A DNA stretch of 64,000 nt from an uncultured Dehalococcoidia bacterium (GCA_903844845.1 CAIMVG010000021.1:70992-134991), one strand, 5' to 3'. Positions 17,498 through 36,791 are shown, counted from the first letter of the stretch. Numbers and translations: made by a program. Notes: a model not told the origin generated them from the letters alone.

Positions 17498-17572
17498 CGC
17501 GGGGTGGAGCAGTGGCAGCTCGTCGGGCTCATAACCCGAAGGTCGTTCGTTCGAATCGAACCCCCGCTACCA
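17498..17572 (+). tRNA. tRNA-Met (anticodon CAU), initiator type, CCA encoded
   Basis: Manual cloverleaf: acceptor CGCGGGG/CCCCGCT, D arm GAGC-AGTGGCA-GCTC, anticodon arm TCGGG-CTCATAA-CCCGA, T arm GTTCG-TTCGAAT-CGAAC, then ACCA. Three consecutive G:C pairs close the anticodon loop and positions 1:72 are unpaired (C:U); both are initiator hallmarks. Confidence 0.9.
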
Positions 17573-17582
17573 AATAAATAAT

Positions 17583-17612
17583 AAAGCCCCCTGGTAATTC
17601 AGGGGGCTTTTC
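17583..17612. terminator. Bidirectional intrinsic terminator (AAAGCCCCCTG-loop-CAGGGGGCTTT)
   Basis: Perfect GC-rich stem with T-rich runs on both strands. Lies downstream of the tRNA (+) and of gene 17642..18193 (-). Confidence 0.75.
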
Positions 17613-17641
17613 TGTGTTTCTCGAATAGTCCGGTTTTTTGT

Positions 17642-18193
17642 TCAGTTCCATTTTATAGAGAACTCGGTGCAGTCGTTGCCTTTAGCTATCGATTTTAGCG
17701 TTTGCAGTTGGACATTCTTGCAACCGCAGATCTCCAGAGAGCGCGTCACCCAGCCGGAGATTCTCAATTCGATCAGGCGGTGCATTCCGGGGAATTTGGT
17801 TATCTCTAGTGTCACGCTATGGGATTGCTCGTTCGTTACTTTGATGACGCTGTCTTTGTAATAGGTGGCCATAATCTGGCTACCCTTGCCGATGATGAAA
17901 CCGGGCGAGCCTAATTTCACAAACAGCTTGTAAACACCCTGTAAGGAGGACTCAGAACTGAATCTTCCGATTTCCGTGGCGAAATCTTCTTTTCCACCAT
18001 AGAACATAGAGCTAATCTTCTGCATCGGCTCTACCATTGCCTCTGTGATCGGGTACCAGCTGCTGGCCATCGGGCTATTTATGATTGCCGCAGCCTGGGG
18101 CGAAAGGGATTTGAACCAATCATCATACCTGTTTGCGTGTTTGGCTCGAACGAAATCGGGGATTGATTTTACCGCGGTGCCTTTTACTTCCAT
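17642..18193 (-). CDS. Hypothetical protein, DUF2378/TIGR02265-like (recollection only)
   Basis: 183 aa. VKGTAVKS..DFVR.........W...L.......I.....SSWYP ... GW......E..G.K.V......S.A.G.D.C.F.I.W resembles the Myxococcus paralogous family pattern. Bracketed by tRNA-3'-end repeats. Confidence 0.6.
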   Translation of the reverse strand: MEVKGTAVKSIPDFVRAKHANRYDDWFKSLSPQAAAIINSPMASSWYPITEAMVEPMQKISSMFYGGKEDFATEIGRFSSESSLQGVYKLFVKLGSPGFIIGKGSQIMATYYKDSVIKVTNEQSHSVTLEITKFPGMHRLIELRISGWVTRSLEICGCKNVQLQTLKSIAKGNDCTEFSIKWN

Positions 18194-18411
18194 GATTTCT
18201 CCTTATGCAATTACCGATGCCATTCCGCTTAAAGCAGCTATATCCGGCAATTTTAGGGTTGTTGCCGGGGTAGAAGGAAGAACCGCTCGGCTACAAATCG
18301 CGGGCTTGACGGCTTATCCGATTGGCTATTCAGGCCAAAATGCCGATGTTGTTACGGAACGGATCGAAATGGAAACCGATATTTCGAATAAGTTCCGTTT
18401 GGACAGGTGAT

Positions 18412-18480
18412 GGTTCGAATCGAACCCCCGCTATCAATCAAACAATAAAGCCCCCTGATAATTCAGGGGGCTTCTTCTTT
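18412..18480 (+). repeat. Direct repeat of the tRNA-fMet 3' end (T-arm plus acceptor) plus terminator hairpin, copy 2
   Basis: GGTTCGAATCGAACCCCCGCTA is identical to tRNA positions 17547-17568. The following ~40 nt, including the hairpin AAAGCCCCCTGATAATTCAGGGGGCTT, differ from copy 1 at about 5 positions. Confidence 0.85.
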
Positions 18481-18508
18481 TCTTGACGATATTTGCCGAG
18501 ATTAAAAA

Positions 18509-19069
18509 TCAAACCCTCAACGAGCCGCGGAATCCCCTGGCGCTATAATAAGAGTCCGCGCCGTTGTGATACACGAAGACGTGGTCGTAGCGGCGATCGG
18601 CGAAGATAGCGCCTCCGAGTTTTCTGATTTCGGGGGGCGTTTTCAACCAGCTGGACGTTTTAGTATCGAAATTCCCGAGTTTCTGCAACTCGCGGTATTG
18701 TTCTTCAGTTAAAACCTCGATGCCCATAACAGCCGCCATCCCCATGGCGCTGTCTTTTGGTTTAGCTGCTTTCCTTGAATCCAGCGCATCGGGGTCGTAA
18801 CAGACATTTCTGCGGCCTTCGGGACTTTCCTTCGAACAATCATAAAAGATGTATCCGCCAGTCGTTTTATCATGACCCGCGACATCTGGTTTACCGCCGG
18901 TTCTCTCCATCTCATTGAGAGACCAAAGTTTTTCGGTATCAGCTTCAATTTTTATTTGCACTTTAACCCATTCAAGACCTTCATGGCGGTTCATGTTGGT
19001 ATTAAAGCGCTCTTTCAAGGCTTTTAATAATTCTTCGCGTTGTCCGGGTGACAGAGTTTTAGTCTGCAT
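18509..19069 (-). CDS. DUF4256 domain-containing protein
   Basis: 186 aa. L...QREELL..LK.RF..NM.RH.GLEW..VQ.K.E...EKLWSLNEMERTGG.PDV...D..TG.Y.FYDCS.ESP.GRR..CYD and a C-terminal RYDHVFVYHNGA.SYY.ARGFRGSL.V match my memory of this family. Confidence 0.75.
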   Translation of the reverse strand: MQTKTLSPGQREELLKALKERFNTNMNRHEGLEWVKVQIKIEADTEKLWSLNEMERTGGKPDVAGHDKTTGGYIFYDCSKESPEGRRNVCYDPDALDSRKAAKPKDSAMGMAAVMGIEVLTEEQYRELQKLGNFDTKTSSWLKTPPEIRKLGGAIFADRRYDHVFVYHNGADSYYSARGFRGSLRV

Positions 19070-19152
19070 TATGCCCTCCTCTCTATCGTAAAACTATCTT
19101 ATCATAACTTCCGAAGCTGTCTTGCAACCGCGATCATTAGTGAAAGTAACGA

Positions 19153-19215
19153 GCGAATCGAATCCCCGCTGTCCATCATATAAAAAGCCCCCTGATGATT
19201 CAGGGGGCTTTTGGT
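19153..19215 (+). repeat. Degenerate direct repeat of the tRNA-fMet 3' end plus terminator hairpin, copy 3
   Basis: GCGAATCGAATCCCCGCTGTCCATCATATAAAAAGCCCCCTGATGATTCAGGGGGCTTTT is colinear with copies 1 and 2 but more diverged (about three quarters identical by eye). Confidence 0.7.
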
Positions 19216-19237
19216 TTAACACTCCATTTATGTTTAT

Positions 19238-19636
19238 TCAGGCGGTTTTTAACTGCGCCCCGCAGCCGGCGCAGAAGGCTTTGCCCGGCGTTATTTTTGC
19301 TCCGCATCGAGGGCATGCCAAGGGAGTTGTTTGCCTGGGTTTCATCAGGGACAACAGCGCTTCACGGGCCGCATGCGCGTCCCCGCCTTTCAATTGGGTG
19401 CATTTTTCGAAGGCGTTGTAACTGGCGAACCTGTCGTGCAGTTGCGTTATTTTTGATTTGGGCAGTGCCTTCATCGCGTCCGCTTTGCGTATCGATTTCG
19501 AAACCCTGTTTAAAGACTGGTCCGCGAACTCTTTTTTTATGGTCTCACCCATGGAAGCCCTTTTTACCGATTTATCCATGGAATATTTGGCTTCCATCAG
19601 GTCATTCAGGATCTGTTGGTTCCCCTGGTTTTCCAT
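19238..19636 (-). CDS. Zinc-ribbon protein (coiled N-terminal part, C-terminal CPRCG...CAGCG ribbon)
   Basis: 132 aa. CPRCGAKITPGKAFCAGCGAQL is at the C-terminus. The start lies 3 nt downstream of the stop of the 806-aa gene, suggesting an operon. Confidence 0.65.
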   Translation of the reverse strand: MENQGNQQILNDLMEAKYSMDKSVKRASMGETIKKEFADQSLNRVSKSIRKADAMKALPKSKITQLHDRFASYNAFEKCTQLKGGDAHAAREALLSLMKPRQTTPLACPRCGAKITPGKAFCAGCGAQLKTA

Positions 19637-19638: not shown

Positions 19639-22059
19639 TTATCTGCCTCCCGCGTTGGCATCATAGTTGCCGCCGGTTTGTTGTGCGGCGCCTGACTGCG
19701 CCTGCATCTGCTGCATCTGTTCCTTCGTATAGGTAGCCGTTTTCCCGCCGGCTTCGGTGGTCGTGACCGACCCGTCTCTATGCAGGTCTATCCTGTTGCC
19801 TTGTTTATCTTGAACGTAACCGGAGCCATCGCTTTTGGTCTTCATCGTGGTGCCTTTCGAGTCCGTGATATCGGAGTTGCCCTGGGCGTCCCAAGAGCCT
19901 GCCCCGTCGGGGCCTTTCATCTCGCCTGAGCCGTCGCTCTTTATATCCTGGGTATTCCCCTTGTCGTCTTTGATGTGCATGTTCCCCTTGTCGTCAGTGG
20001 TCAGATCTAACGTTCCCTGTTCATCCTTGACGTGTGCATCGGTAACATTCCCGCCTTTTATATCGACCGAATTACCCTTTTCATCCTTGATATGCGCCTC
20101 GTTGCCGTCCTGGCTGATATCGGCGGTATTGCCCTTGTCGTCCTTGATGTGCATGGTGCCCTTATCGTCGGTGTTGAGGTCGACCGTTCCCTTGTCATCC
20201 TTGATATGTGCGCTGGTCACGTTGCCGTCCGAGTTGATATCGGCGGTATTGCCCTTGTCGTCCTTGATATGAATGTTGTCGGCATCGTCAGTGTTGACGT
20301 CCATCGTGCCGCCGTCTTCAGTTTTGATATGGCCGTTCATCTTGCCGTCGGCATCGGCATTGATGAAAGAGCCGTCATGGAACTTGGCCCTCAGTCCGTT
20401 CTCGTCGACCGTGATCTTATCGCCATCAGGAGTTTCGCCTTCGAAAGAGCCATCCTCCTTGATGGTTATTTTATTGCCCTGTTCGTCGGTCATGGAACCG
20501 CTCATATTCCCGTCTTTGTCGATTTTCATCGTGCCGCCGGGAGTGGAGATGCTGGCGGAACCATCCTTGTTCATCGTCATTACGGTACCGTCATATGTGG
20601 TTAAAGACCCTTCAGGGTAGCCCTCCTTCGGGCAATGCAGTGTACCGCCATATGGTGATTTTACGTCGATGCTGCCATCCTTATTGAGGGTGGATCCGCC
20701 TGTCCGGCCGTCCGGCAAGGTTATCTCTATTTCGCCGCTAGGTTTTGTGACCTGCAGCCCTGTTTCGGGGCTCCACTCTTTTTTCGTACCGTCGGGGTAA
20801 GACGTGTAACTACTGCCGTCGGGCCCCTCCGAATAGGTGGTGCCGTCGGGATAAATCGTGGTAACCACTTTGTCAGGAGTCCGGTTGATGATCGTCCCGT
20901 CCGGTTGCATCGTGTTGGTCGAGCCGTCCGGCAGGCGCTGGGATTGGAACTTGCCGTCAGCATCGTAGGTGCTTACGGTACCGTTCGGCTGGCGCACCGT
21001 GAGGGTTTTATCCGGGTTCGTTTCGACGGTGGTTCCGGGAGGGTCATCGGGGTTTGTCGAAGGCACCGGACCCTGCGGTACAGGGGGTTCTTCAGGCACA
21101 TCAGGCGGTTCTTCGGGGGGCGGCCCTATTTCGCCGGTCGCGATATCCTCTCCCGCACCTTCGGGTATTTCCGACTCGTCCCCGCCTTCGGCTGACTGCC
21201 CGACGATGACTCCGGCACTTACTCCGGCGACACCGCCCGAAAAGATACCTGCAAAGGTATGGTGAGCACTTTCAAAGTCGAATAGCTGCGACAAGAGAGA
21301 ATGCCCGGAAAATCCCGGGACATTGAGGTGGCTCAAGGCTCCCAAAGCTACCAGGGGAGCCAGAAGGCTCATCGCGCCGGATACCCTTCGGACCGGGGCC
21401 GGTTCAGCTTTGAGAAAGCGCGGCAGGACCCTGGCTACCAGCAGCAGGGCCAGCCCTATCCAGGCAAAATAATATCCCACGCCGAAGAAAGCTTTCAGGA
21501 TGTGCACCCCGGGCCTTTCGGTCAGGTAGCCCGTGATGGTCGGGGAAAAGGTGTAAAGAAGCAATCCTGAAAGGGCCAGCAGCCAGTGGTCTATCTTCTC
21601 GAGGTTCATGCTGCCCCAGTACATGAGTATGATGCTGATGAAAACGATGAAAACAAAACCCGGGAAAATATCGCCTGAGGGGCGGGAGAACAGATTTTTA
21701 GGTATGGCGAATACGATGCTTATGTATTTCGGAATCGTATTAGGCGTATGGCCGCTGGGAAGCGTCATGTAGTCGGCTATCGGTAAAAGGAAAGCTAAAG
21801 AGAAAAAGAGTTTGGCCACTACGGGGCATAGATCGTTAACCAGGTCCTGCCAGGGTTTGAGGTGGAAAGGCAGGCGGTTGAATAGTTTCAACACTACGAA
21901 CCCGGCCAGAGTGGCCACTAAAAGGCCGACGATGCCGCTGAGGAAATAGCCGACGATCAAGCCGGCGAGGATGGAGAGCAAGACAGGGAAACCTTCTTTG
22001 GTGAATAGCCATCTGGTGCGGGCTGCAAGTGACTGTTTGACGCCTGCATCTTTTTTCAT
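19639..22059 (-). CDS. Large membrane-anchored repeat protein (N-terminal multi-TM domain, Pro-rich linker, PDG/DDKGN repeat ectodomain)
   Basis: 806 aa. About 290 aa of hydrophobic helices, then the linker GPPPEEPPDVPEEPPVPQGPVP, then many short ..PDG(T/S).. beta-like repeats. Six or more HIKDDKGN(T/S).D units follow. Confidence 0.75.
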   Translation of the reverse strand: MKKDAGVKQSLAARTRWLFTKEGFPVLLSILAGLIVGYFLSGIVGLLVATLAGFVVLKLFNRLPFHLKPWQDLVNDLCPVVAKLFFSLAFLLPIADYMTLPSGHTPNTIPKYISIVFAIPKNLFSRPSGDIFPGFVFIVFISIILMYWGSMNLEKIDHWLLALSGLLLYTFSPTITGYLTERPGVHILKAFFGVGYYFAWIGLALLLVARVLPRFLKAEPAPVRRVSGAMSLLAPLVALGALSHLNVPGFSGHSLLSQLFDFESAHHTFAGIFSGGVAGVSAGVIVGQSAEGGDESEIPEGAGEDIATGEIGPPPEEPPDVPEEPPVPQGPVPSTNPDDPPGTTVETNPDKTLTVRQPNGTVSTYDADGKFQSQRLPDGSTNTMQPDGTIINRTPDKVVTTIYPDGTTYSEGPDGSSYTSYPDGTKKEWSPETGLQVTKPSGEIEITLPDGRTGGSTLNKDGSIDVKSPYGGTLHCPKEGYPEGSLTTYDGTVMTMNKDGSASISTPGGTMKIDKDGNMSGSMTDEQGNKITIKEDGSFEGETPDGDKITVDENGLRAKFHDGSFINADADGKMNGHIKTEDGGTMDVNTDDADNIHIKDDKGNTADINSDGNVTSAHIKDDKGTVDLNTDDKGTMHIKDDKGNTADISQDGNEAHIKDEKGNSVDIKGGNVTDAHVKDEQGTLDLTTDDKGNMHIKDDKGNTQDIKSDGSGEMKGPDGAGSWDAQGNSDITDSKGTTMKTKSDGSGYVQDKQGNRIDLHRDGSVTTTEAGGKTATYTKEQMQQMQAQSGAAQQTGGNYDANAGGR
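19930..20290 (-). repeat. Intragenic tandem repeats encoding HIKDDKGNTADI.(S/Q)DGN...-type units (about 19-21 codons each)
   Basis: Repeated DNA strings GCCCTTGTCGTCCTTGATGTGCAT / ATTGCCCTTGTCGTCCTTGATATG recur across this interval. The protein shows at least 6 consecutive units. Confidence 0.8.
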
Positions 22060-24966: not shown

Positions 24967-25064
24967 ATATTAATTTCCTTTTAACGAATTTAATACTGAG
25001 CAAATGAAAAATTGCTTTGCTTTCGCGGTATCGAGGGCAATTGAAAATATTCGGTGATAATAAG

Positions 25065-26651
25065 TTAAATGCTGAGTCTTATGTTTTTTAATTCTTCATA
25101 TTGTCTGAAACATTTTTCCATCTCTTCGGCAGGAACATTTAAATTCTCGATGAACCAATTGTCCACGGTTTTCATAGCTAGAGCTCTTTGGTCTTTCAGA
25201 ATTAGGTCGTCGACTCTTGATTCAATGCCGTAAGGAAAAACAAAATTTTCGCCTAAAAAGACTAATGCTTTCTTTGCCGCAGACGGTTCTATCTTTAGCA
25301 CCCCACTTCCGTATGTCTTAGAATATATTTCAAAAGAAAGTTGGGACAATGAGCTGAGCATTGAGAACCGTATCCACCGTAAACTGAGGTCAATATTTTC
25401 AGTGTTCTTTAGATAAACTCCATGGACGTTATTTGTGCTATATATTTTGTCCGGATTCAAAACGATGGTCGGAGTTTCTTTAATCATATAAGGGAGAAAT
25501 GCATCGGGTGATTTCTTTGGTGCAATGCAATACCAAACATTTCTATTTTTACAATGAAGCCTTTTGGCATATCCTTCAACTACGCCTCGTTGTATGTATT
25601 TAGTGAGAGATTCAGAAAGTGGAATATTTTCTGGTATCTCTAAAATATAATCTTGTATGTTAATGGCAGAAATATCTTTGCATTTATACATATCCCGGGC
25701 TTTTCGGACGATTGGTTTAATGAAAGAATCCGGTATCCCCAATTCGGTGGCTTGTATTTTGTTAATAATGAAGAAATTATTTGCGCCAGTTACGGTGCCG
25801 ATTAAAACGTCCGTACATTTACCTAATGGCTGGAATTTGAGGAGATTTCTGAGTTTCTCCAAGCTCTTTGATTCTTTTCTAAATACCTGGAGATTTTCAA
25901 TTGTTGAATTTCCAACTGGAATGGTGCGCCACTTGACATCTCTGTCGGGAATCCCGCGTGAATTGCCGATTTGTATTTTATGAGACCGCGTTCCATATTG
26001 GTCTGCAAAGAGAAGGAGGATTCTTTCTTGGTTTGTATCAAACAATTGTTGTCCTATAACCGCAATTCTTATCTCTCCAAAATTCGCAAAAAGATATTCT
26101 TTGACGGGCCGAGAATATTCTGAATATAAGAACGACCATGGCAGAATTGCACCAAGACTGCCGTTTATCCTGATGTATTTAAGAGAATGTAATATAAAAT
26201 ATGCCCATAAATCACAGGTTTTTCTCACACATGTGGTGCTACTAACGAGCGTGTTTAAATATTTCTTTGTCTCTTTGGTTAATGAATGATGTCGAATATA
26301 TGGCGGATTCATAATGATTGCATCAAATTGGCTTGGTAGGTTGCAGTTCTTCAGATAAAAAAAATCTGTATTAGTTAAATTCCCAATCTCAACGGTTCGG
26401 TTGAGTAAATCCATAATTTTCTTTGGAGGTAGGTTGACGTCACATCCGAAAAGTTGCGTACTCGGATTCGGAGTTCCCAGTGATTCGAAGCGCTTGTGTG
26501 CGGCAAATAACAAGGCTCCATGCCCAAAACAGGGGTCAAATACCGTCGCATGCTCGTTTTTAATAGTATTGTATACCAGGTAGTCAGCTAAGGCTTCAGG
26601 TGTGAAATGAATTCCATCCTTTTTACGAGGGAGAGATTCAGACGTGGTCAT
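25065..26651 (-). CDS. N6-adenine DNA methyltransferase (gamma class, Eco57I/TaqI-like catalytic domain plus C-terminal target-recognition region)
   Basis: Motif I VFDPCFGHGALL, motif IV IIMNPPYIRHH, and a C-terminal GSGVLKIEPS-type segment. Start taken at the ATG at 26651 (MTTSESL), which forms a TAATG overlap with the upstream stop. An alternative start is at 26681. Confidence 0.85.
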   Translation of the reverse strand: MTTSESLPRKKDGIHFTPEALADYLVYNTIKNEHATVFDPCFGHGALLFAAHKRFESLGTPNPSTQLFGCDVNLPPKKIMDLLNRTVEIGNLTNTDFFYLKNCNLPSQFDAIIMNPPYIRHHSLTKETKKYLNTLVSSTTCVRKTCDLWAYFILHSLKYIRINGSLGAILPWSFLYSEYSRPVKEYLFANFGEIRIAVIGQQLFDTNQERILLLFADQYGTRSHKIQIGNSRGIPDRDVKWRTIPVGNSTIENLQVFRKESKSLEKLRNLLKFQPLGKCTDVLIGTVTGANNFFIINKIQATELGIPDSFIKPIVRKARDMYKCKDISAINIQDYILEIPENIPLSESLTKYIQRGVVEGYAKRLHCKNRNVWYCIAPKKSPDAFLPYMIKETPTIVLNPDKIYSTNNVHGVYLKNTENIDLSLRWIRFSMLSSLSQLSFEIYSKTYGSGVLKIEPSAAKKALVFLGENFVFPYGIESRVDDLILKDQRALAMKTVDNWFIENLNVPAEEMEKCFRQYEELKNIRLSI

Positions 26652-27430
26652 TATTGATATGCAATCTCGTGCAGACAGCACTTATCTTTTGCCATCACAG
26701 CATTAACCAAACTTACATAATTCACCCACCAAACTTTTTGGCTTTTGGACACCAAATTGTTCCAAGATCGCTCTTCAACCATGTCATTTAGCGGTGTATC
26801 AAATTCTCTTAAAGCCAAATCCAAAACTAATAAATAATCCATAGGAAAATATTGGATCCGCGGGTTTTCTAGAAATGGCTCAAGGCAATAATGCGAATTC
26901 ATGCCATTAGGTATGGAATTTGGAGGATTCCCACCGTATTGAAGATGGGAAGGGGGTATTTTTTGGTTGCCCGGTTGGAGATCAAAATGGAATTTTCTAA
27001 CAATCCTCTTTCCGGTTTTTTGTGAAACTCGGCAGCAAGAATCTCCGGGAGTAATAAGCCCCTCTGTTTGGAACGTGACCCAAAACGCGAACGAAGACCG
27101 AGTTATAGATTTCTTATCGCCTGTGATTACGCCTCCAATAATAATTGTGGGGTGATGTTGATTTAGCTTTTTGTTCAATACGGGAATTTCGATTAGTGGA
27201 ATATTGCAATGGAAATTGTTGCCTGTTTCTGACTTCAATTTAGCATAGGCTACGGCAATAGAAGCAGCAGGGCTCCCGGTGATTGTAGCGTATCGTTCTT
27301 CATTGATACTTCGAAACTCAGCAGAGCATTGTAAGTAATTTAGAGATTCCAACAGTTGGGTTTGGGCTTCATCACGATCCACTTCGCATGTCTCAGTTTT
27401 GTTGGTCAGTTTATTAGTTAAATCTGGCAT
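26651..27430 (-). CDS. Orphan 259-aa protein (candidate effector or specificity component of the island operon)
   Basis: Uninterrupted ORF, AT-rich like its neighbours, coupled on both sides. I recognise no family motif. Confidence 0.65.
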   Translation of the reverse strand: MPDLTNKLTNKTETCEVDRDEAQTQLLESLNYLQCSAEFRSINEERYATITGSPAASIAVAYAKLKSETGNNFHCNIPLIEIPVLNKKLNQHHPTIIIGGVITGDKKSITRSSFAFWVTFQTEGLITPGDSCCRVSQKTGKRIVRKFHFDLQPGNQKIPPSHLQYGGNPPNSIPNGMNSHYCLEPFLENPRIQYFPMDYLLVLDLALREFDTPLNDMVEERSWNNLVSKSQKVWWVNYVSLVNAVMAKDKCCLHEIAYQ

Positions 27431-27438
27431 ATTCGAGC

Positions 27439-28473
27439 CTAATTTTTTCTGAACGACCTAAATCCGTCAAAGTAGAGGTATCGTTGTTTCGAAATATCAG
27501 GTTGACTGCATCTTATGTGGACCGGAGATTCCTTTTTGTTATCGAGGTCCATCCCGACGGTCTCCGGGAATGGCTCGGAACAGACCGCACACCTACTGCG
27601 TTGTTCCGCTTGGATATCGAATATTTTGTTGGAAATGGACCAAGGTTCATCTGAATCCACGTCAGCGGCTCCAGGTTCCGAAAACAGTAATTGAGTTACT
27701 TCATTGACCCACCATAAAGATTTATGAGTACCATTAAAAACACCCGAATATTTGGCTTTGCTAAATATTTCGGCGATTTTTTCGAAACCCACCTCATTAA
27801 CACCCAATAAAGTTGAGATTCGCAAACTGTCCGAGAGAATGCCTGGCACAACCATCAATTGTCTTCGGACCCATCGAGAAAATGAAATTGTATTCCCCTC
27901 GCCTTCAGAGTCGGTGTCGGGAGTTAACCCATTTCTTAAATTATCTGGTAAAGTTAAAGATATTAACTTTTCACAAGAGTCTGGTACGCGCAACAAATCA
28001 ATTAAAGCTTTCACGTCACCTCTCGGGGTGTCGGCTCTTATTGTTTTGTAATCCAATGCATCGTAATAAAGGGATTGTTCATTTTTTTGGTATCTCTGCA
28101 GTTCTTTAACAGTTAAAATTCTATCAAATACACTTTCGGTTGCTTGTGACCACTTCGAAAGGTCTGCGTATCCGTTTTTATTTTCTTGGTTTGTCACTAG
28201 ATAAATTGGGTGTTCCGGGAATTTTTCTCTTATTAAAGCCCCTGGAGTGAGCCCGTGATCTTGGAAAAAAACATTTTCGGAATTTGGTTTCTGATTCAGA
28301 TATAAATCAACCAAGAAAATGTCCGGGAGATCCGATCCCTTCATCGTCGTTAGAGATGATTTGAATCGAGTTGGATGTGTCCATACTATTCTCAACAGGT
28401 CTGAGCTTAAATTCTGGGATTCCTCAGTTTGGTCTTGATCATCAATCCAAAAAGCCAGTAATTTGGTGCTCAT
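27439..28473 (-). CDS. REC-like (response-regulator receiver) protein with a possible HTH and a C-terminal Cys/His cluster
   Basis: D11 D12 (FWIDDQD), D56 (FLVDLYL), T94 (YLVTNQ) and K107 (DLSKW) reproduce the spacing of the CheY D12/D13/D57/T87/K109 quintet. LRISTLLGVNEVGFEKIAE is HTH-like. CAVC....(x21)..HIRC lies near the C-terminus. Confidence 0.7.
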   Translation of the reverse strand: MSTKLLAFWIDDQDQTEESQNLSSDLLRIVWTHPTRFKSSLTTMKGSDLPDIFLVDLYLNQKPNSENVFFQDHGLTPGALIREKFPEHPIYLVTNQENKNGYADLSKWSQATESVFDRILTVKELQRYQKNEQSLYYDALDYKTIRADTPRGDVKALIDLLRVPDSCEKLISLTLPDNLRNGLTPDTDSEGEGNTISFSRWVRRQLMVVPGILSDSLRISTLLGVNEVGFEKIAEIFSKAKYSGVFNGTHKSLWWVNEVTQLLFSEPGAADVDSDEPWSISNKIFDIQAEQRSRCAVCSEPFPETVGMDLDNKKESPVHIRCSQPDISKQRYLYFDGFRSFRKN

Positions 28474-30743
28474 GGAAATAATACCTCAATGCATGTTTTC
28501 CAAGGGGTCTCTGGTTTTGTGAATCGTATTGAGCCATTATAGGATTCCACAGTTGTTTTAACTATGTTAAGGCCTATTCCGCTACCCCTACCGAGCGCAG
28601 CAAGGGAATCGTTTGCGACCCTCCGTTTTAATGAAGAATATAAATTTCCGGCAGGGTCTGCGTTAAGGGGTTTGAAAACTTCCTCCCAGTATTTTTCTTC
28701 CAGCCCAATTCCATCATCGCAAACCGCTAAAACCTTTTTTCCATTTTGCGAGTATACTTTGACATAAATATTACGGCCGTTACCCGAAAGGTTCGCTTTT
28801 ACCGCATTGGAAATCAAGTTCACGATTATGGAATATATTTCCACTTCAAGGATTGGGCCGATTTTAAAATCTTCAGGGATTTCGACGACTGGTTTGTTAA
28901 TTCCATACTCTTCGATCAAATATTGGAACCCCATCATCACTTCATCGACAATTGGTTTTAACAGTATTAGCTGCCTTTTTGTTTCGCCAGATGTTCTACT
29001 CAATGTTCCAAACAATTGAATCTGTTGGTCTAGCCTGTCACGGGTTTTTCGAAGAGATTGTGCAAATAATGAAAAATCGTGCTGATATATTTTGGGTACA
29101 TCGTTCAACATTCTATCTATCGTGTTGGCGTGAGTATCTAATCTGGCCATCAGGTTTTTAATTTCATGAGAAAAATTGAACATCAAAGAACCTGTAGAGG
29201 CGACAGCTTTTAATATCCCAAGGTAAATTTCTGATATTGAATAGGATTGCTTTACGAATTCGCTTGCTGCATTCAATCTAATTTCAGCTTTGCGTCGTTG
29301 TTCTTCAGGTAAAGTTTTAAGAGCTGTTTTAGCTTCATCAGAAATCAATGTTAACGCTTTTAGGGCTATTGGGGTCGTTTCTTCGGTTGGGGAAAAGCTG
29401 AAATTTGTCTTATCACCGAGCAATCCTTCCAATTCCTCGGCTTTTTTATACAATTCTCTTCTTCCTGTGACAAGCAAAAATTCATTGTAATGTAAAACCA
29501 TCCATTGAATAGAAAGTCGAAGAACCGTAACAAGATCTTCGAATGATGAGTCCTCAATAAACCCTTCCCTATCGAGTTTGACCTGCAAGGGCATCGATGG
29601 ACCAGAATTTATCACAACATTCCCGTAAAGTTGTTGGTTTCGCGGGGAATTGAGCATTGCCCTCAGCGGGTCTACCCCCAATTTAGAAGCTATTTCGCTC
29701 AACCTGTCATCTGTTCGCCCTTTGCGCCTCGCGACGTCTGCATCGATGCGTAACCAATCGTTTCCTGCATCTCCATAAGGGTACACTCGGAATCCATCGA
29801 GATAAACTCGAACTCCACCTTGTTCTGTAAGAAGATCCAAGATACCTGTTTTTGTGATAATTCTAGTGTCTCTTAACAGGCTCTTTTGCATTGGAAGCCA
29901 GGCAATTTCAAAGGTTATTCCTTTTAAGTTTTCGAACGCTTCATCCAGTCCAAATTCTTTTAACCCGATTTCCTTTGCTTCGAGCTTCAAATTACAGATG
30001 CCTTGATTATTTATTTCTCCTTCAAGTTTCCCCCAACCTGCGTCTAATAATTGCCTTGATAAAATTCCCTCACCACTGGGAAATTCCGGGGCCTCCAGTT
30101 TTATTTCGAACCCCGGGTCTTCCTCAAAACCTTCTCTTCTCACGCCTTTAACGATGGAAAGTCCTAAAACGTGTCTTCTGAGAAGGTTGAAATCGCTGTC
30201 AGTCCAACGCTCCACAAGGTTGGTCAAAATCAAACTTAACCCAGTTTTCCCGTTTATTAACAAGTCTCGTGTATAGACACATGGTATTTGGGTTAGAGTG
30301 GTGCCCGGTTTGAAATCCCCCCAATTGAAAGTTACCTTTGTCTTTTCTAAACCTCTTTTTTCGGACGTCGTTCCAACTGTCTCCATCACCAGCTTTTTTG
30401 CCAGCCTGCGACAGGCGAATCGCCCTACACCCTTGTTACCGGTTTTACGTCTCCCGTATTTTGGTGATACGGGCGCGCGAACTTTTGAAGTCGTTGCTAT
30501 CCTCATCCAATAGTCACTTACCTCTTGGAAAGACATACCGTGCCCATTGTCTGAGATGTGAATTTCGCCTTGGTTAGGGCCTTTTTTTGCCTTGATAAAC
30601 TTGATGACAATTTCCGTTGCATCAGCGTCATAAGCGTTTTTGATGAGTTCTGCCAACGCAACATAGTTCCTGGTGACCAATCGCTCACCAAGTTCGCCTA
30701 ATAATTGGCTGTCAACGCTAAATGATAATTCAGTCTTAGGCAT
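28470..30743 (-). CDS. Dual Bergerat-fold protein: N-terminal MORC/MutL/Hsp90-like GHKL ATPase plus C-terminal histidine kinase (H-box plus HATPase_c)
   Basis: N-terminal module: ELIKNAYDADA (N box), ISDNGHGMS (G1), GNKGVGRFA (G2). C-terminal module: FSHEIKNLMARL (H box), IVNLISNAVKA (N), CDDGIGL (G1), GRGSGIGLNIV (G2). Start taken at the ATG at 30743 (MPKTEL). The track start at 30812 would add a hydrophobic 23-aa extension. Confidence 0.8.
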   Translation of the reverse strand: MPKTELSFSVDSQLLGELGERLVTRNYVALAELIKNAYDADATEIVIKFIKAKKGPNQGEIHISDNGHGMSFQEVSDYWMRIATTSKVRAPVSPKYGRRKTGNKGVGRFACRRLAKKLVMETVGTTSEKRGLEKTKVTFNWGDFKPGTTLTQIPCVYTRDLLINGKTGLSLILTNLVERWTDSDFNLLRRHVLGLSIVKGVRREGFEEDPGFEIKLEAPEFPSGEGILSRQLLDAGWGKLEGEINNQGICNLKLEAKEIGLKEFGLDEAFENLKGITFEIAWLPMQKSLLRDTRIITKTGILDLLTEQGGVRVYLDGFRVYPYGDAGNDWLRIDADVARRKGRTDDRLSEIASKLGVDPLRAMLNSPRNQQLYGNVVINSGPSMPLQVKLDREGFIEDSSFEDLVTVLRLSIQWMVLHYNEFLLVTGRRELYKKAEELEGLLGDKTNFSFSPTEETTPIALKALTLISDEAKTALKTLPEEQRRKAEIRLNAASEFVKQSYSISEIYLGILKAVASTGSLMFNFSHEIKNLMARLDTHANTIDRMLNDVPKIYQHDFSLFAQSLRKTRDRLDQQIQLFGTLSRTSGETKRQLILLKPIVDEVMMGFQYLIEEYGINKPVVEIPEDFKIGPILEVEIYSIIVNLISNAVKANLSGNGRNIYVKVYSQNGKKVLAVCDDGIGLEEKYWEEVFKPLNADPAGNLYSSLKRRVANDSLAALGRGSGIGLNIVKTTVESYNGSIRFTKPETPWKTCIEVLFP

Positions 30744-31023
30744 GGAAAAAGCTCTCCCAGCAAAGATAACAAGTCTGAGAATGAATATATTCCAAATTGG
30801 GGTTGCTTTCAAGCATGTTGTTTTTAGGGACTAAAATCTAAAAGAAGAATTGGAATAACGATGTTTGATTTTCACAAATCGTACTTTTTGGTACATTATT
30901 AAACATCGCGAGTCTAGCGGTGTAGTTTATTGAATAGAAATTCTGACGGTTAAAGACTTTAGTTGGGTCGCTCAAATGCAGGATTTCGTCTCGTTGTAAA
31001 ATCCTTACAGGAGGGAAATACAA

Positions 31024-31515
31024 ATGCAAAGGATAACCCCGAATCTGTGGTTCGATAACCGGGCAGAAGAAGCTGCCAATTTCTACGTCTCCATCTTCCC
31101 CAATTCCAAAATCAACGGGATCTCTCATTACGGGGAAGGAAACGCGAAGGTGTCGGGTATGAAAAAGGGCACCGTGATGACCGTCACTTTCGAACTCGAC
31201 GGCCAGCAGATGATGGCCCTCAACGGCGGCCCGGTTTTCAAGTTCAACGAAGCCGTCTCCCTGGTCGTCAATTGCATGACCCAGGACGAGATCGACCATT
31301 ACTGGGATTCCCTGTCGCAGGACGGCGACCCGAAAGCGCAGATATGCGGATGGCTGAAGGACAAATATGGAGTGTCCTGGCAGGTGGTCCCCGTCGCTCT
31401 TGGCGAGATGATGCAGGATGAAGACGCTAAGAAAACGGATAGGGTCATGGCTGCTTTGTTGAAGATGAAAAAAATCGATATCGCCACCCTGAAGAAAGCC
31501 TATCTCGGGAAGTGA
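31024..31515 (+). CDS. VOC family protein (PhnB / 3-demethylubiquinone-9 3-methyltransferase-domain type)
   Basis: MQ.ITP.LWFD..AEEA..FY.SIF.NS.I............G.V.TV.F.L.GQ....LNGGP.F.F.EA.S....C..Q.E.D..W..L...G....CGWLKDK.G.SWQ..P. Confidence 0.82.
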   Translation: MQRITPNLWFDNRAEEAANFYVSIFPNSKINGISHYGEGNAKVSGMKKGTVMTVTFELDGQQMMALNGGPVFKFNEAVSLVVNCMTQDEIDHYWDSLSQDGDPKAQICGWLKDKYGVSWQVVPVALGEMMQDEDAKKTDRVMAALLKMKKIDIATLKKAYLGK

Positions 31516-34129: not shown

Positions 34130-34510
34130 TCAAGCGTGCGTTAATACCGGGCCTGCGCATTGGGCGATTTTGTCCAGAAGCTCCCTGAGATTGAACGGCT
34201 TGGTGACATAATCGGCGGCGCCCACGTTCTTGGCAAATTGTTTGTTCAGCTGGAAACCCACCGCCGTCAACATGATGATAGGTATCCCGGCAGTCTTCGG
34301 GTTGGATTTCAGGCTGGATGCTACCGCGTAACCGTCCATCTCGGGCATCATGATATCCAGCAGGATGACATCCGTTTTTTGGCGGGCGGCTATGTCCAGC
34401 CCGTCTTTGCCGTTTGACGCTGAAAGCACGTTGTAGCCGTAAGCAGTAGCCATGTCCCGTACGAGTTTGACGGCCATCGGGTCATCATCGATAACAAGCA
34501 GGTTCTTCAC
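34130..34510 (-). CDS. Single-domain response regulator (REC only)
   Basis: LLVIDDDP ... DVILLDIMMPEMDG ... PIIMLTA ... K receiver signature, 126 aa. Confidence 0.9.
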   Translation of the reverse strand: MKNLLVIDDDPMAVKLVRDMATAYGYNVLSASNGKDGLDIAARQKTDVILLDIMMPEMDGYAVASSLKSNPKTAGIPIIMLTAVGFQLNKQFAKNVGAADYVTKPFNLRELLDKIAQCAGPVLTHA

Positions 34511-36791
34511 ATAGTTCTCCTTTTTTTATCGGCAAAGTAAAATAGAAACGGCTGCCTTTGTTTTTTCCGTCGCTCTCCACCCAGATATTTCCTCCGTGAG
34601 TTTCGACGATACGTTTGCTGATTGCCAGTCCCAATCCGGTGCCCGGTGTTTTAGAAATCAGGCCGCTCTGGACTTGATAGAAATCGGTAAAAAGTTTATC
34701 GATGTGTTCGGGAGGAATCCCGATGCCGTTGTCGGCCACGCTGAAAACGAGGGTGTTATCGTCGTTGCGGCCCTGGATATTGATGCTGCCGCCATCCGGC
34801 GTAAATTTCACGGCGTTGGAGAGCAGATTGAACATAACCTGTTTGATCCTGCGCTCGTCTATCGAATATTCACGGGTTTGCAGTTCCGGGGATACCTGAA
34901 CATTAATCTTGATCCCTCGCCTGGCGGTTTTTTCCTTTACCATCAGGAGGCTGCTGTTTATCAGGTTCTGGATGTTTACGGGTGAAAATTGCAGTTCCAC
35001 CTTGCCTGCTTCTATCTTCGCAAGGTCGAGTACGTCATTGATGAGTTCCAGTAAATGCCGCCCGCTGGTCAGGATGTCATCGATATATCCGGATTGCTTT
35101 TCATTGAGAGGGCCGTATAATTTCTGTTCGAGAAGCTGGGAGAACCCCAGGATAGCACTGAGCGGGGTGCGGAGTTCGTGGGACATACTGGCCAGGAAAT
35201 CGCTCTTGGCTTGGTTCGAAGCATTGGCGGCCACCACAGCCTGTTCGAGCTGTTCCGTTCTCTCGGCAACCTTGGCTTCCAATCTCAGGTTAAGCAATTT
35301 GAGGTCCTGGTTCAGTCGTGCCAGGGACTCGGCCGCATTTTGACGCTCCGTGTTATCGATGAGAGTGCTCACGAGTTGTTTTCCGTTGGCATCGTCAGTT
35401 TGAACTATAGTATTCTGGGATGCCCAGAATTTCATGCCGTTATTGCGTTTCCAGATGGTTTCGAAATTTTTGACCACCCCGTCTTGCTCCAACTTCTGAA
35501 ACAGGCGTGTTCTTTCTTCAGGATCGGCATACAGCGACCACGCATAAAGGTCCTGGATCTCATTTTCCCCATGAAAACCGAACATCTCCAGGGCGGTCTT
35601 GTTTGCACTCAGTATCTTGCCGTTGGACAAGGACGTCACTATCCCGATAGGGGCATTTTCCACTAGGTTGCGGAACTTGGCTTCGGATATCCTGAGGGCC
35701 TCTTCGGCATGCTGGCGCTCGATGAGTTCGGTTTCGAGCACTGCTCTCCGGGTAGATTCGGCTTCAGCTTCCTTTTGCCGGGTGATGTCGTGCAGCATCA
35801 CCAGGTACCCGCTGATGCAGTTCCGCGTGACGATGGGAGAGGTGCGGAGTTCATAGCAGCGCTTGTCGGGGTTTCCATCTGGCGAGTGGATAATGATTTC
35901 CCTGGAATCGGCCTCGGCTTGACTCGGTTGTGGTTGGCCCGGCAAAACACGCTCATACGCCTGCCCGATGACGTCACGCGTCCCGCTGCCGAGAATAGCC
36001 CTTGCTACGTAATTGAGTTCAATCACGCGCAGTTCGCTATCCAATACCATCACGCCGTCGGACATGCTTTTAAAAACTACGTCGTAGGCCACCGGCATGA
36101 TATCCAGCAGGTGGAAGCGGGAAAGGCCCCAAAAAAAGGCGGCCCCGGTGATGGTAAAGGCAAATGGCGTCGGATCGATGGCCAGCACCGTGGTGCCGAG
36201 GTAAAAGACGTTGGCCACCCAGGGCACCGCGGTCCCCAGCAGGACGACGACGAGCTGTTTCCGGTAGATGCCTGACGATCGCGTGAACGAGCTGTACAGC
36301 ATGACCGTGCCAGCCAGGATGAGGCCGTAAGAGTAGGCTGTGTGGGCCCAGAACCAGTAACCATGAGTGACGGCGTCAACCGGAGGTGAGACTGATGTGT
36401 TTAGCCAGATGTCCTTCCACATCAGGTGGGTGGTGCCATTCGTCCAGACGTTTATCAGAGTGATTGCCGGGAGGATGCAAAGCAGGATCAGCCTGCCCCG
36501 CGTAAGCCACTTTTCACGCCCTGTGTATTCCAGCGTGAATACAAACCAGAAGACAGGCATGACGGTGATGCCGAAATAAGACAGGTTTATGCAGACTTTC
36601 TTGGCGTCGAGGCTGAGGGCGGAATATTCGGCCAATGCTGCCAGAGACCACCATGCCAGTGAAAGCATTAGAACCAGAAAGGACAGCGCCATAGTTTTTT
36701 TTCTGAATTTCCTCAATCTCAAAGCGAGCAGGGCCGCTCCGCAAAAAGCCGTCAGGGGCAACAGTGTATTGACGTTAATAATGAAGCGCAT
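34485..36791 (-). CDS. Sensor histidine kinase (N-terminal 7TM domain, two PAS-like domains, HisKA, HATPase_c)
   Basis: About 230 aa of seven hydrophobic helices; PAS-like segments; H box FLASMSHELRTPL; N box FNLLSNAVKFT; G boxes DNGIGI and GTGLGLAI. Confidence 0.9.
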   Translation of the reverse strand: MRFIINVNTLLPLTAFCGAALLALRLRKFRKKTMALSFLVLMLSLAWWSLAALAEYSALSLDAKKVCINLSYFGITVMPVFWFVFTLEYTGREKWLTRGRLILLCILPAITLINVWTNGTTHLMWKDIWLNTSVSPPVDAVTHGYWFWAHTAYSYGLILAGTVMLYSSFTRSSGIYRKQLVVVLLGTAVPWVANVFYLGTTVLAIDPTPFAFTITGAAFFWGLSRFHLLDIMPVAYDVVFKSMSDGVMVLDSELRVIELNYVARAILGSGTRDVIGQAYERVLPGQPQPSQAEADSREIIIHSPDGNPDKRCYELRTSPIVTRNCISGYLVMLHDITRQKEAEAESTRRAVLETELIERQHAEEALRISEAKFRNLVENAPIGIVTSLSNGKILSANKTALEMFGFHGENEIQDLYAWSLYADPEERTRLFQKLEQDGVVKNFETIWKRNNGMKFWASQNTIVQTDDANGKQLVSTLIDNTERQNAAESLARLNQDLKLLNLRLEAKVAERTEQLEQAVVAANASNQAKSDFLASMSHELRTPLSAILGFSQLLEQKLYGPLNEKQSGYIDDILTSGRHLLELINDVLDLAKIEAGKVELQFSPVNIQNLINSSLLMVKEKTARRGIKINVQVSPELQTREYSIDERRIKQVMFNLLSNAVKFTPDGGSINIQGRNDDNTLVFSVADNGIGIPPEHIDKLFTDFYQVQSGLISKTPGTGLGLAISKRIVETHGGNIWVESDGKNKGSRFYFTLPIKKGELCEEPACYR

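Follow-up and report, generated by a model that had tools for sequence, protein, structure and literature searches.

Introduction

What might a histidine kinase do when a MORC/MutL-like ATPase occupies the place of its sensor, and why would such an enzyme be encoded beside a DNA methyltransferase? This question is raised by a gene in a 64,000-nucleotide stretch of DNA from an uncultured Dehalococcoidia bacterium (GCA_903844845.1, CAIMVG010000021.1:70992-134991), which we refer to as the window.

Results

The hybrid kinase is a genuine fusion

The reading frame of the kinase gene was uninterrupted (Table 1), and every motif quoted in the first-pass annotation was found in its product: ELIKNAYDADA (residues 32–42), ISDNGHGMS (63–71), and GNKGVGRFA (102–110) in the N-terminal half and FSHEIKNLMARL (524–535), IVNLISNAVKA (640–650), CDDGIGL (675–681), and GRGSGIGLNIV (718–728) in the C-terminal half. 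A longer alternative begins with a TTG codon at 30812. We place the true start at the ATG at 30743 rather than at this TTG, because homologs start there and gene callers give the 757-residue protein, because a GGGAGA Shine-Dalgarno sequence lies ~9 nt upstream, and because the best promoter-like hexamers (30812–30784) overlap the longer start. The total number of promoter-like sites in the region was no higher than in shuffled sequences. No 19-residue window of the 757-residue protein attained a Kyte-Doolittle value of 1.6, and the kinase is therefore assigned as soluble, which bears out the earlier proposal of a cytoplasmic enzyme without transmembrane helices.

Table 1. Features of the kinase cassette in the window (positions counted from its first nucleotide).
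Feature	Position	Strand	Basis or remark
Low-GC island with four-gene cassette	25000..31000	.	37–42% G+C between 51–56% G+C flanks
Eco57I-like gamma-class N6-adenine DNA methyltransferase, 528 aa	25065..26651	(-)	Pfam, PADLOC; start from gene callers
P3, 259 aa, third conserved triad gene	26651..27430	(-)	Conservation and gene order
Response regulator (predicted), 344 aa	27439..28473	(-)	Receiver fold, profile, gene order
Hybrid kinase gene, 757 aa	28470..30743	(-)	MORC/MutL-like ATPase module, helical linker, DHp, CA
C-terminal catalytic ATP-binding (CA) domain	28473..28844	(-)	Pfam HATPase_c
DHp domain with H box	28989..29231	(-)	HK853 alignment and family profile
Long helical linker between ATPase module and DHp, ~aa 399–504	29232..29549	(-)	AF2
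Middle transducer-like region with beta-rich insert, ~aa 196–398	29550..30158	(-)	AF2 and Foldseek; boundaries approximate
N-terminal GHKL (Bergerat) ATP-binding domain, ~aa 1–195	30159..30743	(-)	Pfam HATPase_c_3
Promoter-like TTGAAA-17-TATATT	30784..30812	(-)	10/12 positions matched; ~40 nt upstream of kinase ATG; weak

In principle the fusion could be spurious, with a paraMORC gene and an independent kinase gene joined by a frameshift, by misassembly, or by faulty gene calling. We rejected this origin, whose probability we regard as vanishingly small, because the frame is open, the identical protein is encoded on nine independent contigs, and full-length two-domain homologs occur in hundreds of species. 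The best 120 database matches were all full-length proteins of 706–791 residues or fragments of such proteins, both Pfam GHKL domains were present in 116 of these 120, and relatives were encoded in at least 573 GTDB species genomes. Conservation of the fusion, which the first-pass annotation had left to be checked, thus extends across hundreds of bacterial and archaeal species.

A MORC-like ATPase module precedes a predicted class I kinase core

As had been claimed, profile searches detected two independent GHKL domains, both far above the Pfam gathering cut-offs. HATPase_c_3 matched residues 28–126 (85.4 bits, cut-off 25, E 4.6e-24), and HATPase_c matched residues 634–756 (80.4 bits, cut-off 26.4, E 1.7e-22). 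We assessed conservation in 64 relatives that were about 23–39% identical. In the N-terminal domain, E32, N36, D39, D65, G67, G69, K104, G105, and G107 were each present in 64/64 sequences. The CA domain contains an N box (N642, N646), a G1 box (D676, G678, G680), F690, and a G2 box (G720, G722, G724), among which N642, N646, G678, G720, and G722 were invariant, D676 was present in 57/64 relatives, and F690 in at least 90%.

The candidate phospho-acceptor of the DHp domain is H526 (codon 29166–29168, checked), followed by E527. This H-box histidine, on whose conservation the original kinase assignment depended, was invariant in all 64 divergent homologs, and E527 was present in 60 of them. The single kinase sequence gave no match to Pfam HisKA. 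An alignment by phmmer placed residues 520–693 on HK853 (2c2a), with FSHEIKN over ISHELRT, and a family profile of the C-terminal 250 residues matched the solved DHp+CA kinases ZraS, ThkA, and HK853 with E-values between 1e-32 and 1e-28. From these comparisons, the core is a complete one of the HisKA type (class I), as proposed earlier, with predicted kinase activity.

The AF2 model of residues 1–505 had a pLDDT of 84.5, and its top Foldseek matches were MORC2, MutL LN40, TRAP1/Hsp90 N+M, SMCHD1, and GyrB43, with alignments spanning 430–530 columns. NCBIfam matches of the N-terminus also included MutL, and the middle region carries the motifs DPGF, AGWG, GFRVYPYG..DDWL, and REGF, which were conserved in the alignment. 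Beyond this region, the model contains linker helices at residues 399–443, 459–475, and 480–504; this linker was the most variable stretch of the kinase alignment. On these models, the N-terminal half is predicted to form an ATPase module of two domains, a GHKL domain and a probable transducer, as in MutL, MORC, and Hsp90, and the 300 residues formerly listed as uncharacterized would belong to this module and to the helical linker. This arrangement fits an ATP-driven clamp at the position where kinases usually carry a sensor, and the module may act as a signal input or DNA sensor.

A response regulator and a third conserved gene lie downstream

Directly downstream of the kinase are a 344-residue gene and the conserved third gene P3, both of which the first-pass annotation overlooked. 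We recognize the first of these here as the predicted cognate response regulator of the kinase. First, its receiver domain (~residues 1–125, nt 28099–28473) contains D11, D12, D56 (codon 28306–28308), and T94, and among 58 relatives D56 was conserved in all 58 and D12 in 57, whereas 54 had a Ser or Thr at residue 94. Second, the N-terminal part had (beta-alpha)5 topology in an AF2 model, and the top 50 Foldseek matches of the regulator were all receivers. Third, the family profile matched receivers in the PDB at E 1e-5; Pfam Response_reg (PF00072) was matched by 6/58 relatives. Finally, NCBI labels homologs of this protein 'response regulator'. The receiver is followed by a helical output domain that ends in CxxC...HxxC. 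The AF2 model of this domain was poor (pLDDT <50 at residues 154–214 and 235–266), and conservation among the 58 relatives was confined to Y242, G244, W254, W255, L213, and one Cys.

P3 had no match in Pfam, NCBIfam, PADLOC, or the PDB, and no resemblance to a nuclease or any other enzyme could be detected. Nine of its residues (R145, H148, D150, H162, Q164, G167, P190, R191, and W223) were invariant or nearly so. The family comprises 939 cluster representatives, the best 150 of which were all stand-alone proteins of ~220–280 residues, and distant members were found in the same type of cassette. P3 thus appears from its sequence and gene order to be a dedicated, enzyme-like partner of the kinase and regulator. 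It is the best effector candidate, because it is the sole component with an unexplained invariant Arg/His/Asp/Gln set. Some kinase relatives lack P3; cassettes on Campylobacter pTet plasmids consist only of kinase, regulator, and dcm, and P3 is therefore not a universal effector. We also considered P3 as a receiver and rejected this assignment in domain and profile comparisons.

The triad adjoins interchangeable DNA-modification modules

The methylase at the end of the cassette matched Pfam N6_Mtase, Eco57I, and M_Eco57I_C as well as PADLOC MTase_II (E 8e-68), retains intact motifs I (DPCFGHG) and IV (NPPY, residue 115), and supplies a specificity domain of its own at the C terminus. The methylase start codon overlaps the stop codon of P3 (TAATG), and the ATG of the regulator overlaps the kinase stop codon (ATGA). 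The methyltransferase-linked operon of the original description is thus a four-gene cassette with an N6-adenine methylase downstream of the kinase.

Across 80 loci from bacteria and archaea, the regulator followed the kinase in 59 and P3 followed the regulator in 46. In 66 of the 75 loci with a callable kinase ORF, a methylase (N6 or C5) or else an Ssp-like module lay within ~7–9 kb; an Eco57I-like N6 methylase was present in 49 loci, a C5 methylase in 15, and in 4 a co-directional module of DUF4007, a large ATPase, and a PAPS-reductase (SspBCD-like) adjoined the triad. Kinases linked to phosphorothioation genes were 44–47% identical to N6-linked kinases and 46–48% identical among themselves, which points to module swapping. 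The kinase-regulator-P3 triad therefore adjoins interchangeable modification modules for N6-adenine methylation, C5 methylation, or SspBCD-like phosphorothioation. No recognizable nuclease or SF2 helicase recurred in the 80 kinase neighborhoods, and Pfam, PADLOC, and NCBIfam detected no recognizable endonuclease or helicase in the window cassette. PADLOC did not class the cassette as a defense system, matching only the methylase and an N-terminal REase_II-like segment.

These neighborhoods bear on the possibility that the kinase and regulator form a regulatory, C-protein-like two-component system. The kinase would then sense a cytoplasmic cue (nucleotide pools, DNA state), and the regulator would be a DNA-binding transcription factor that controls the methylase, P3, or an unlinked R-M system. 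Bellieny-Rabelo, Pretorius & Moleleki (2021; PMC8011034) came to much the same view, proposing a regulatory role tied to R-M systems, and it agrees with an output domain that has no conserved catalytic-type residues in 58 relatives and with an HTH-like helix-Gly-helix around regulator residues 216–238 in the low-confidence model. We nevertheless consider it unlikely. The cassette offers no restriction endonuclease to control, the dedicated enzyme-like P3 is left unexplained, and the compact triad travels in the company of three modification systems that are unrelated to one another, as would be better expected of a restriction partner. The regulator and P3 (~15–25% identity) also evolve much faster than the kinase (~25–39%), as is typical of conflict proteins.

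The cassette appears mobile

Relatives were present in 157 plasmid records, among them one archaeal plasmid that carries the full cassette. One cassette copy lies between a CI-like repressor and an integrase, and relatives also occur close to integrases and TA genes. In the window, the cassette coincides with the low-GC island. Judged by its composition and overlapping genes, the four-gene cassette, which begins with the kinase, is horizontally acquired and translationally coupled.

R-M systems are known to act as addiction modules, and this behavior, the low-GC island, and the plasmid-borne relatives and those close to integrases and TA genes would all suit a selfish module in which P3, or the regulator with P3, is a toxin curbed by methylation and the cassette serves self-maintenance after transfer over host defense. 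We give this explanation little chance, as it leaves two ATP-consuming GHKL modules and a phosphorelay unaccounted for, and it is itself compatible with defense.

Relation to known systems

The novelty of the fusion was overstated in the original description, as a 2021 paper (PMC8011034) had already presented this architecture, its association with R-M systems, and the notion of a sensor. That computational study described kinases with HATPase_c_3, HEF_HK, and HATPase_c domains that adjoin response-regulator-like genes in R-M neighborhoods; its 'group 1' (174 of 222 sequences) combines HATPase_c_3, a DHp domain with His followed by Glu/Asp, and HATPase_c, and its authors suggested that the N-terminal GHKL domain descends from a paraMORC and serves as the sensor (PMC8011034). 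The window system resembles these HEF_HK/Response_reg_2 systems in its soluble kinase, architecture, adjacent regulator-like gene, and strong methylase link. The published sequences come mainly from proteobacteria and are associated with C5 methylase and Vsr (PMC8011034), whereas members of the window clade occur in archaea as well as in many bacterial phyla and mostly accompany Eco57I-like N6-adenine methylases. A further probable difference is the conserved third gene P3 of the window clade, although it may correspond to one of the orthologous groups left unnamed in the 2021 paper. The window kinase did not match PF19191 (HEF_HK), nor the regulator PF19192 (Response_reg_2), even at E up to 10. 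HEF_HK gave weak matches in only 5/64 kinase relatives (best 1e-3) and none in the C5-linked or Campylobacter kinases tested, and Response_reg_2 matched 0/58 regulator relatives and none of the others tested. By these profile comparisons, the window kinase and regulator represent a variant beyond the 2021 Pfam models.

MORC and paraMORC proteins share with the window kinase an N-terminal GHKL domain with intact ATPase motifs, including E32; the region that follows it in the window kinase is probably transducer-like as well. They share with its family R-M-type neighborhoods with methylases and a sporadic distribution, through lateral transfer, among bacteria and archaea. At the C terminus, paraMORCs have nuclease, TIR, or uncharacterized domains, or else they are paired with SF2 helicases and nucleases, and DNA looping was suggested for those encoded in R-M operons (Iyer, Abhiman & Aravind, 2008; PMC2292703). 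That paper describes no paraMORC with a DHp+CA kinase and a receiver partner, and the term 'receiver' is absent from it. Unlike in paraMORC operons, no recognizable helicase or nuclease partner was found in the window cassette.

Detocs is a three-gene His-Asp phosphorelay that is itself anti-phage and requires the kinase His and receiver Asp; its kinase has a TPR sensor, a PNP ATP-nucleosidase fused to a receiver serves as effector, and its third protein is a stand-alone receiver (Rousset et al., 2023; 10.1101/2023.01.24.525353). The window triad likewise combines a phosphorelay with a third accessory protein, but TPR and PNP domains are absent from its proteins, P3 does not belong to the receivers, and Detocs has no DNA-modification gene.

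These two comparisons bear on a further explanation, in which the work is done by the N-terminal module itself, as a MORC/MutL-type clamp, looper, or compactor on unmodified DNA, and kinase and regulator together control this module or report its state through a phospho-switch. In one version, phosphotransfer would tune or limit the ATPase, and P3 would be an aspartyl-phosphate phosphatase or a sink like Detocs DtcB. The invariance of the catalytic Glu (E32) and all N-terminal ATPase motifs suggests hydrolysis beyond mere binding, and the module resembles MutL and MORC2, the latter solved with DNA. The DNA looping proposed for paraMORCs in R-M operons (PMC2292703) and the dependence of Detocs on a third, safety component (10.1101/2023.01.24.525353) also speak for such a machine, and the invariant Gln, His, and Arg of P3 may suit phosphate chemistry. 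We still judge it distinctly unlikely, given that a paraMORC-style helicase or nuclease partner is missing, that P3 is no receiver, and that nothing marks P3 as a phosphatase.

Other resemblances were partial. The best NCBIfam match of the kinase was the BbrUII/HgiDII model NF050001, which covered the first ~190 residues (E 1.4e-18) but reached only 66.8 bits against a cut-off of 550 and only model positions 2–182 of 659; the rest of such an enzyme is absent from the kinase. PADLOC REase_II models matched residues 5–133. BREX, SspABCD-SspE/FGH, and Dnd systems, like the window cassette, combine a modification module with ATP-using partners and no classical endonuclease. PglZ, BrxL, SspE, SspFGH, and DndFGH were absent beside the triad, and two recent surveys of BREX/Ssp/Dnd-type systems mention no GHKL/MORC components and no such histidine kinase; the sole kinase mentioned in the BREX survey is a minimal kinase fused to Schlafen RNases. 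Compared with classical type II R-M systems, the cassette has an intact N6-adenine methylase and no recognizable endonuclease, with P3 as an uncharacterized candidate.

Discussion

The reading we favor, with confidence evenly balanced between acceptance and doubt, is that the kinase is a soluble hybrid sensor kinase with a MORC-like ATPase at the sensor position and that the triad belongs to a non-canonical R-M or defense system. In such a system, the methylase would mark host DNA. The MORC-like module would bind ATP and dimerize or clamp upon a DNA-related cue, most plausibly DNA without the cognate modification or the state of the modification machinery, and the architecture suggests that the resulting conformational change would travel through the ~100-residue helical linker to the DHp domain. 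The CA domain, whose catalytic residues are conserved and whose activity is predicted, would phosphorylate H526, and the phosphoryl group would pass to D56 of the regulator. The phosphorylated regulator would act through its output domain, which is non-catalytic and probably binds DNA or protein, and may switch on, recruit, or release P3, the candidate effector, which could be a nuclease or other hydrolase. The triad would thus form the 'restriction' half of the system. As Detocs shows, a two-component phosphorelay can itself be anti-phage, which favors defense. Against this reading, a generic triad would have to read three chemically different marks (m6A, m5C, and phosphorothioate).

More tentatively, and with more doubt than belief, we suggest that the triad may be a portable 'restriction' module, in which the MORC-like clamp would read whether DNA bears the host mark (m6A, m5C, or phosphorothioate, according to the partner module) and a phosphorelay to the fast-evolving regulator would unleash P3 as an effector enzyme whose fold is not known from any family. 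If so, the triad would provide the first R-M-type immunity gated by a two-component phosphorelay and the first defined signaling output for a prokaryotic MORC-type ATPase.

Two ATPase modules in one kinase

The kinase matched Pfam HATPase_c_3 at residues 28–126 (E 4.6e-24) and HATPase_c at residues 634–756 (E 1.7e-22), each at about three times the gathering score, and the motifs quoted in a first-pass annotation, which had proposed two separate GHKL modules with the N-terminal one as the input of a histidine kinase, were all found in place. Pfam HisKA did not match the kinase. A phmmer alignment placed residues 520–693 on the DHp and CA domains of HK853 with the H-box histidine in register, and a profile of 64 family members matched the DHp and CA domains of solved kinases (ZraS, ThkA, HK853, CpxA, EnvZ, and others) with E-values down to 1.5e-32. 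The first 190 residues resembled MutL in NCBIfam searches, where their best match was the N-terminal GHKL part of the BbrUII/HgiDII restriction enzymes; the score was 66.8 bits, where the cut-off is 550, and the similarity is at the domain level only.

An AlphaFold2 model of residues 1–505, built from 17 homologues (mean pLDDT 84.5, pTM 0.76), contains the GHKL domain, a mixed α/β middle region with a β-rich insert, and ~100 residues of long helices (399–443, 459–475, and 480–504) that run into the DHp domain. In Foldseek searches of the PDB with this model, all top 50 matches were two-domain GHKL ATPase modules, among them MORC2 (with DNA), MutL LN40, the N and middle domains of TRAP1/Hsp90, SMCHD1, MORC3/4, GyrB 43K, and Topo VI-B, with E-values of 3e-11 to 1e-8 over 430–600 aligned columns. 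GHKL ATPases of the MORC and MutL types act as DNA clamps, and prokaryotic relatives occur in restriction-modification (R-M) operons.

Sequence comparisons place the kinase start at ATG 30743. Homologues begin at the matching position, gene callers gave a length of 757 residues on nine independent contigs, and a GGGAGA sequence lies ~9 nt upstream. These observations, together with hydrophobicity and the best promoter-like hexamers, which overlap the alternative TTG codon, rule out a longer product with a hydrophobic N-terminus. As first proposed, the protein lacks transmembrane helices when read from this ATG, with no window of transmembrane-grade hydrophobicity.

Across 64 relatives with 23–39% identity to the kinase, E32, N36, D39, D65, G67, G69, K104, G105, and G107 of the N-terminal module, H526 of the H box, and N642, N646, G678, G720, and G722 of the CA domain were invariant, and E527 was kept in 60. 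Because the ATP-site residues and H526 do not vary in this sample, neither of two possible objections to the initial observation, missing profile support for two GHKL domains (Pfam supports both) or a variable H-box histidine, holds, and that observation is correct and robust.

The fusion of a MORC-like module to a kinase is an old, widespread family. The best 120 protein-database matches were essentially all 740–790 residues long with both Pfam domains, and came from bacteria and archaea, including Methanoperedens, Bathyarchaeia, Hodarchaeota, Chloroflexota, and Desulfobacteria. Relatives occur in at least 573 GTDB species genomes, with cultured hosts that include Halolamina, Campylobacter concisus, Tannerella forsythia, Mesorhizobium, Chryseobacterium, and Anabaena, and in 157 plasmid records but almost no phage records. 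A gene of Escherichia phage PhiR44_1 annotated 'ParaMORC3' is 29% identical to kinase residues 1–118.

A response regulator and a new protein family downstream

The kinase and regulator genes are coupled in one operon, with the kinase stop codon overlapping the regulator start (ATGA). Several lines of sequence and modelling evidence indicate that the regulator gene product is a response regulator. First, its N-terminus carries the receiver motifs D11-D12, IFLVD56, IYLVT94, and K123, and D56 is kept in 58 of 58 relatives. Second, its AlphaFold2 model shows a (βα)5 fold order, and every one of the best 50 Foldseek matches was a receiver; this model can be interpreted in the receiver part only, as the output domain is modelled too poorly for a meaningful structure search. 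Third, the family profile matched receivers in the PDB at E 1e-5. Finally, Pfam Response_reg matched six of the 58 relatives, and NCBI already calls some homologues 'response regulator'. The output domain does not look catalytic, judging from family-wide conservation, which is limited to hydrophobic or aromatic positions and a single cysteine (C295, kept by 52 of the 58 relatives); the complete CxxC...(C/H)xxC zinc-ribbon-like pair of this regulator recurs in just nine of them.

P3, the product of the third gene, had no match in Pfam, NCBIfam, PADLOC, or the PDB, and its profile found nothing among solved structures. Its family comprises 939 clusters of stand-alone proteins without annotation, in which R145, H148, D150, H162, G167, P190, and W223 show no variation and Q164 and R191 very little; the resulting pattern, R..H.D...H.Q...PR...W, suggests an active site. 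In Pfam, one of 46 P3 members matched DUF2290 (E 0.036), and PADLOC also gave a single such match (E 0.081); this is too weak for an assignment and is left as a lead. Distant P3 representatives had the same cassette around them in every informative case, and one such copy is flanked by a CI-type repressor and an integrase.

Genomic setting of the cassette

Kinase, regulator, P3, and an N6-adenine methylase form a four-gene cassette that stands out as a sharp island of 37–42% G+C between flanks of 51–56% G+C, with an EamA transporter gene on one side and a PF06983 gene on the other. Neither flanking repeats nor a tRNA or integrase gene was found next to it, and candidate direct or inverted repeats that might have marked insertion were short matches at chance level. 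An ORF upstream of the kinase was rejected as a fifth gene, as it had no homologue in 80 loci with kinase relatives; it is probably not a gene, and gene callers annotate an overlapping gene on the other strand. A conventional two-component pair, recognized through correspondence with another locus (L083), lies ~3.4 kb from the cassette, and an otherwise unannotated 806-residue ORF has a sub-threshold match to the Tcp10_C repeat (30.8 bits; cut-off 36).

Features of the cassette, its surroundings, and related loci
Feature	Sequence	Position	Strand	Remarks
Kinase	window	28470–30743	–	757 aa
Regulator	window	27439–28473	–	344 aa
Regulator output domain	window	27442–28098	–	~aa 126–344; helical, poor AF2 model
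P3	window	26651–27430	–	259 aa
Eco57I-like gamma-class N6-adenine methyltransferase	window	25065–26651	–	last cassette gene; motifs I and IV (NPPY) intact, own specificity domain
Low-G+C island	window	25000–31000		four-gene cassette
Rejected ORF	window	30838–31299	–	153 aa
PF06983 (3-dmu-9_3-mt) gene	window	31024–31515	+	163 aa
Two-component pair	window	34130–36791	–	768-aa HisKA_7TM-PAS-HisKA-HATPase_c kinase, 126-aa stand-alone receiver
ORF with Tcp10_C-like repeat	window	19639–22059	–	806 aa
C5-linked third gene (alt220)	L038	13487–14125		~220 aa
C5-linked third gene (alt220)	L047	10134–10805		~220 aa
Trio locus	L039, Chitinophagales	4714–14157
Trio locus	L057, Tannerella forsythia	4768–14073
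Trio locus	L058, Synechococcus	248–8890
Trio locus	L078, Saprospiraceae	9980–19358
Reduced cassette	L082, Campylobacter coli pTet plasmid NZ_AP028372.1	31841–36271		AAA ATPase, HicB, and protein kinase gene nearby
P3 homologue	L081, Halomicrobium sp. LC1Hm plasmid pLC1Hm-01	10358–11167		E 2e-20
Transposase_mut IS element	L092, metagenomic	1384–2664		between kinase and truncated regulator gene
'ParaMORC3' gene	phage PV340563.1	8734–9066

A conserved triad with interchangeable modification partners

The order kinase, regulator, P3 is repeated across 80 loci of different species, many of them truncated; the regulator was found in 59 of these and P3 in 46, in every case downstream and running in the same direction. 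The other recurrent neighbours of this triad are DNA-modification genes only, and no recognizable nuclease or helicase recurs in these neighbourhoods. An Eco57I-like N6 methylase is present in 49 loci. A C5 methylase takes part in 15, where the regulator is divergent yet homologous (hhalign 96.8%) and the third gene is small and different: its RF..HxQ..P..P pattern lines up with the P3 core RFHFD..HxQ..PR..P, but at an hhalign probability of 3% homology to P3 is not established.

In four loci, the triad abuts, in place of any methylase, a tight trio encoding a DUF4007 protein, a ~1070-residue ATPase, and a PAPS reductase. NCBIfam gave no specific SspBCD match for these genes; we read them as SspBCD-like because of their Pfam domains and because published work treats such a trio as equivalent to the phosphorothioation proteins SspB, SspC, and SspD. 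Two recent surveys, which cover phosphorothioation and BREX systems, mention no GHKL or kinase partner. The phosphorothioation-linked kinases are 44–47% identical to N6-linked ones and 46–48% to one another, and this roughly equal nearness indicates that the modification module has been swapped around a conserved triad.

The cassette is mobile. The P3 homologue on the haloarchaeal plasmid sits where the gene table has no gene, and its presence means that haloarchaea also have the full cassette. The metagenomic locus interrupted by an IS element is apparently a decaying copy.

Relation to known systems

The architecture itself is known. Bellieny-Rabelo, Pretorius and Moleleki (2021; PMC8011034), whose starting point was a Pectobacterium gene with 'two HATPase domains', defined PF19191 (HEF_HK, which stands for the DHp) and PF19192 (Response_reg_2), found 91.6% linkage of the two genes across 644 regions as well as an enrichment of R-M genes, mostly C5 methylases and Vsr, and described HATPase_c_3 + HEF_HK + HATPase_c as the dominant architecture. 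That purely computational work, to which we found no experimental follow-up in the literature, further suggested that the N-terminal GHKL domain works as a sensor, with the family as an offshoot of paraMORCs (PMC8011034); the idea of the GHKL module as kinase input is reasonable but only partly supported, and not new. Our kinase and regulator are of the same architectural kind, yet the PF19191 and PF19192 models miss them, and they belong to a clade that is divergent and has a broader distribution. We add to the published picture the identity of the regulator, a dedicated family of P3 proteins, and modification partners that can replace one another, phosphorothioation among them.

ParaMORCs in R-M operons were described in 2008 without a kinase or receiver (PMC2292703). 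Detocs is the experimental precedent for a two-component phosphorelay that is itself an anti-phage system (bioRxiv 10.1101/2023.01.24.525353); domain content rules out membership of our cassette. The cassette methylase weakly matched mad2/MAD2, but MADS is an unrelated eight-gene operon, in whose description the sole histidine kinase is a flanking gene rather than a component. The DefensePredictor paper lists a predicted, unvalidated system with HATPase and REC domains.

A possible relay from DNA to effector

Alignments show that all residues expected to be required for both ATP sites and for His-to-Asp transfer are conserved. We propose that the MORC-like module is the input of the kinase. 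DNA or its modification status would drive ATP-dependent dimerization of this module, which would act through the helical linker on kinase autophosphorylation; the phosphorylated regulator would then control P3, the sole candidate enzyme, while the methylase would protect self DNA. We give this defence-type reading as a whole an even chance, and consider its specific version, in which P3 is a new effector under control of the relay, possible but doubtful. One weak point is that a single triad would have to read three different marks.

Another is that some relatives lack P3. On conjugative tetracycline-resistance plasmids of Campylobacter (43 plasmid records), kinase and regulator accompany dcm without it. 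A purely regulatory two-component system seems unlikely. The Foldseek matches would also suit a MORC machine for which the kinase–regulator pair and P3 serve as a control or safety circuit, an account that we judge quite unlikely. An addiction module, in keeping with carriage on plasmids and compatible with the other readings, is improbable.

Phosphorylation assays can read the output of the MORC-like module directly, because the module is fused to a kinase that has its own regulator. If the triad supplies the restriction half of modification-based immunity, it would be a second example of two-component immunity after Detocs, mechanistically different from it, would form a new class of partner for phosphorothioation and methylation systems, and would define a function for the ~900-cluster P3 family. 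If it only regulates methylation, it would still be a cytoplasmic signalling pair that is widespread and moves laterally, with relatives in over 570 species, archaea included, and also on plasmids.
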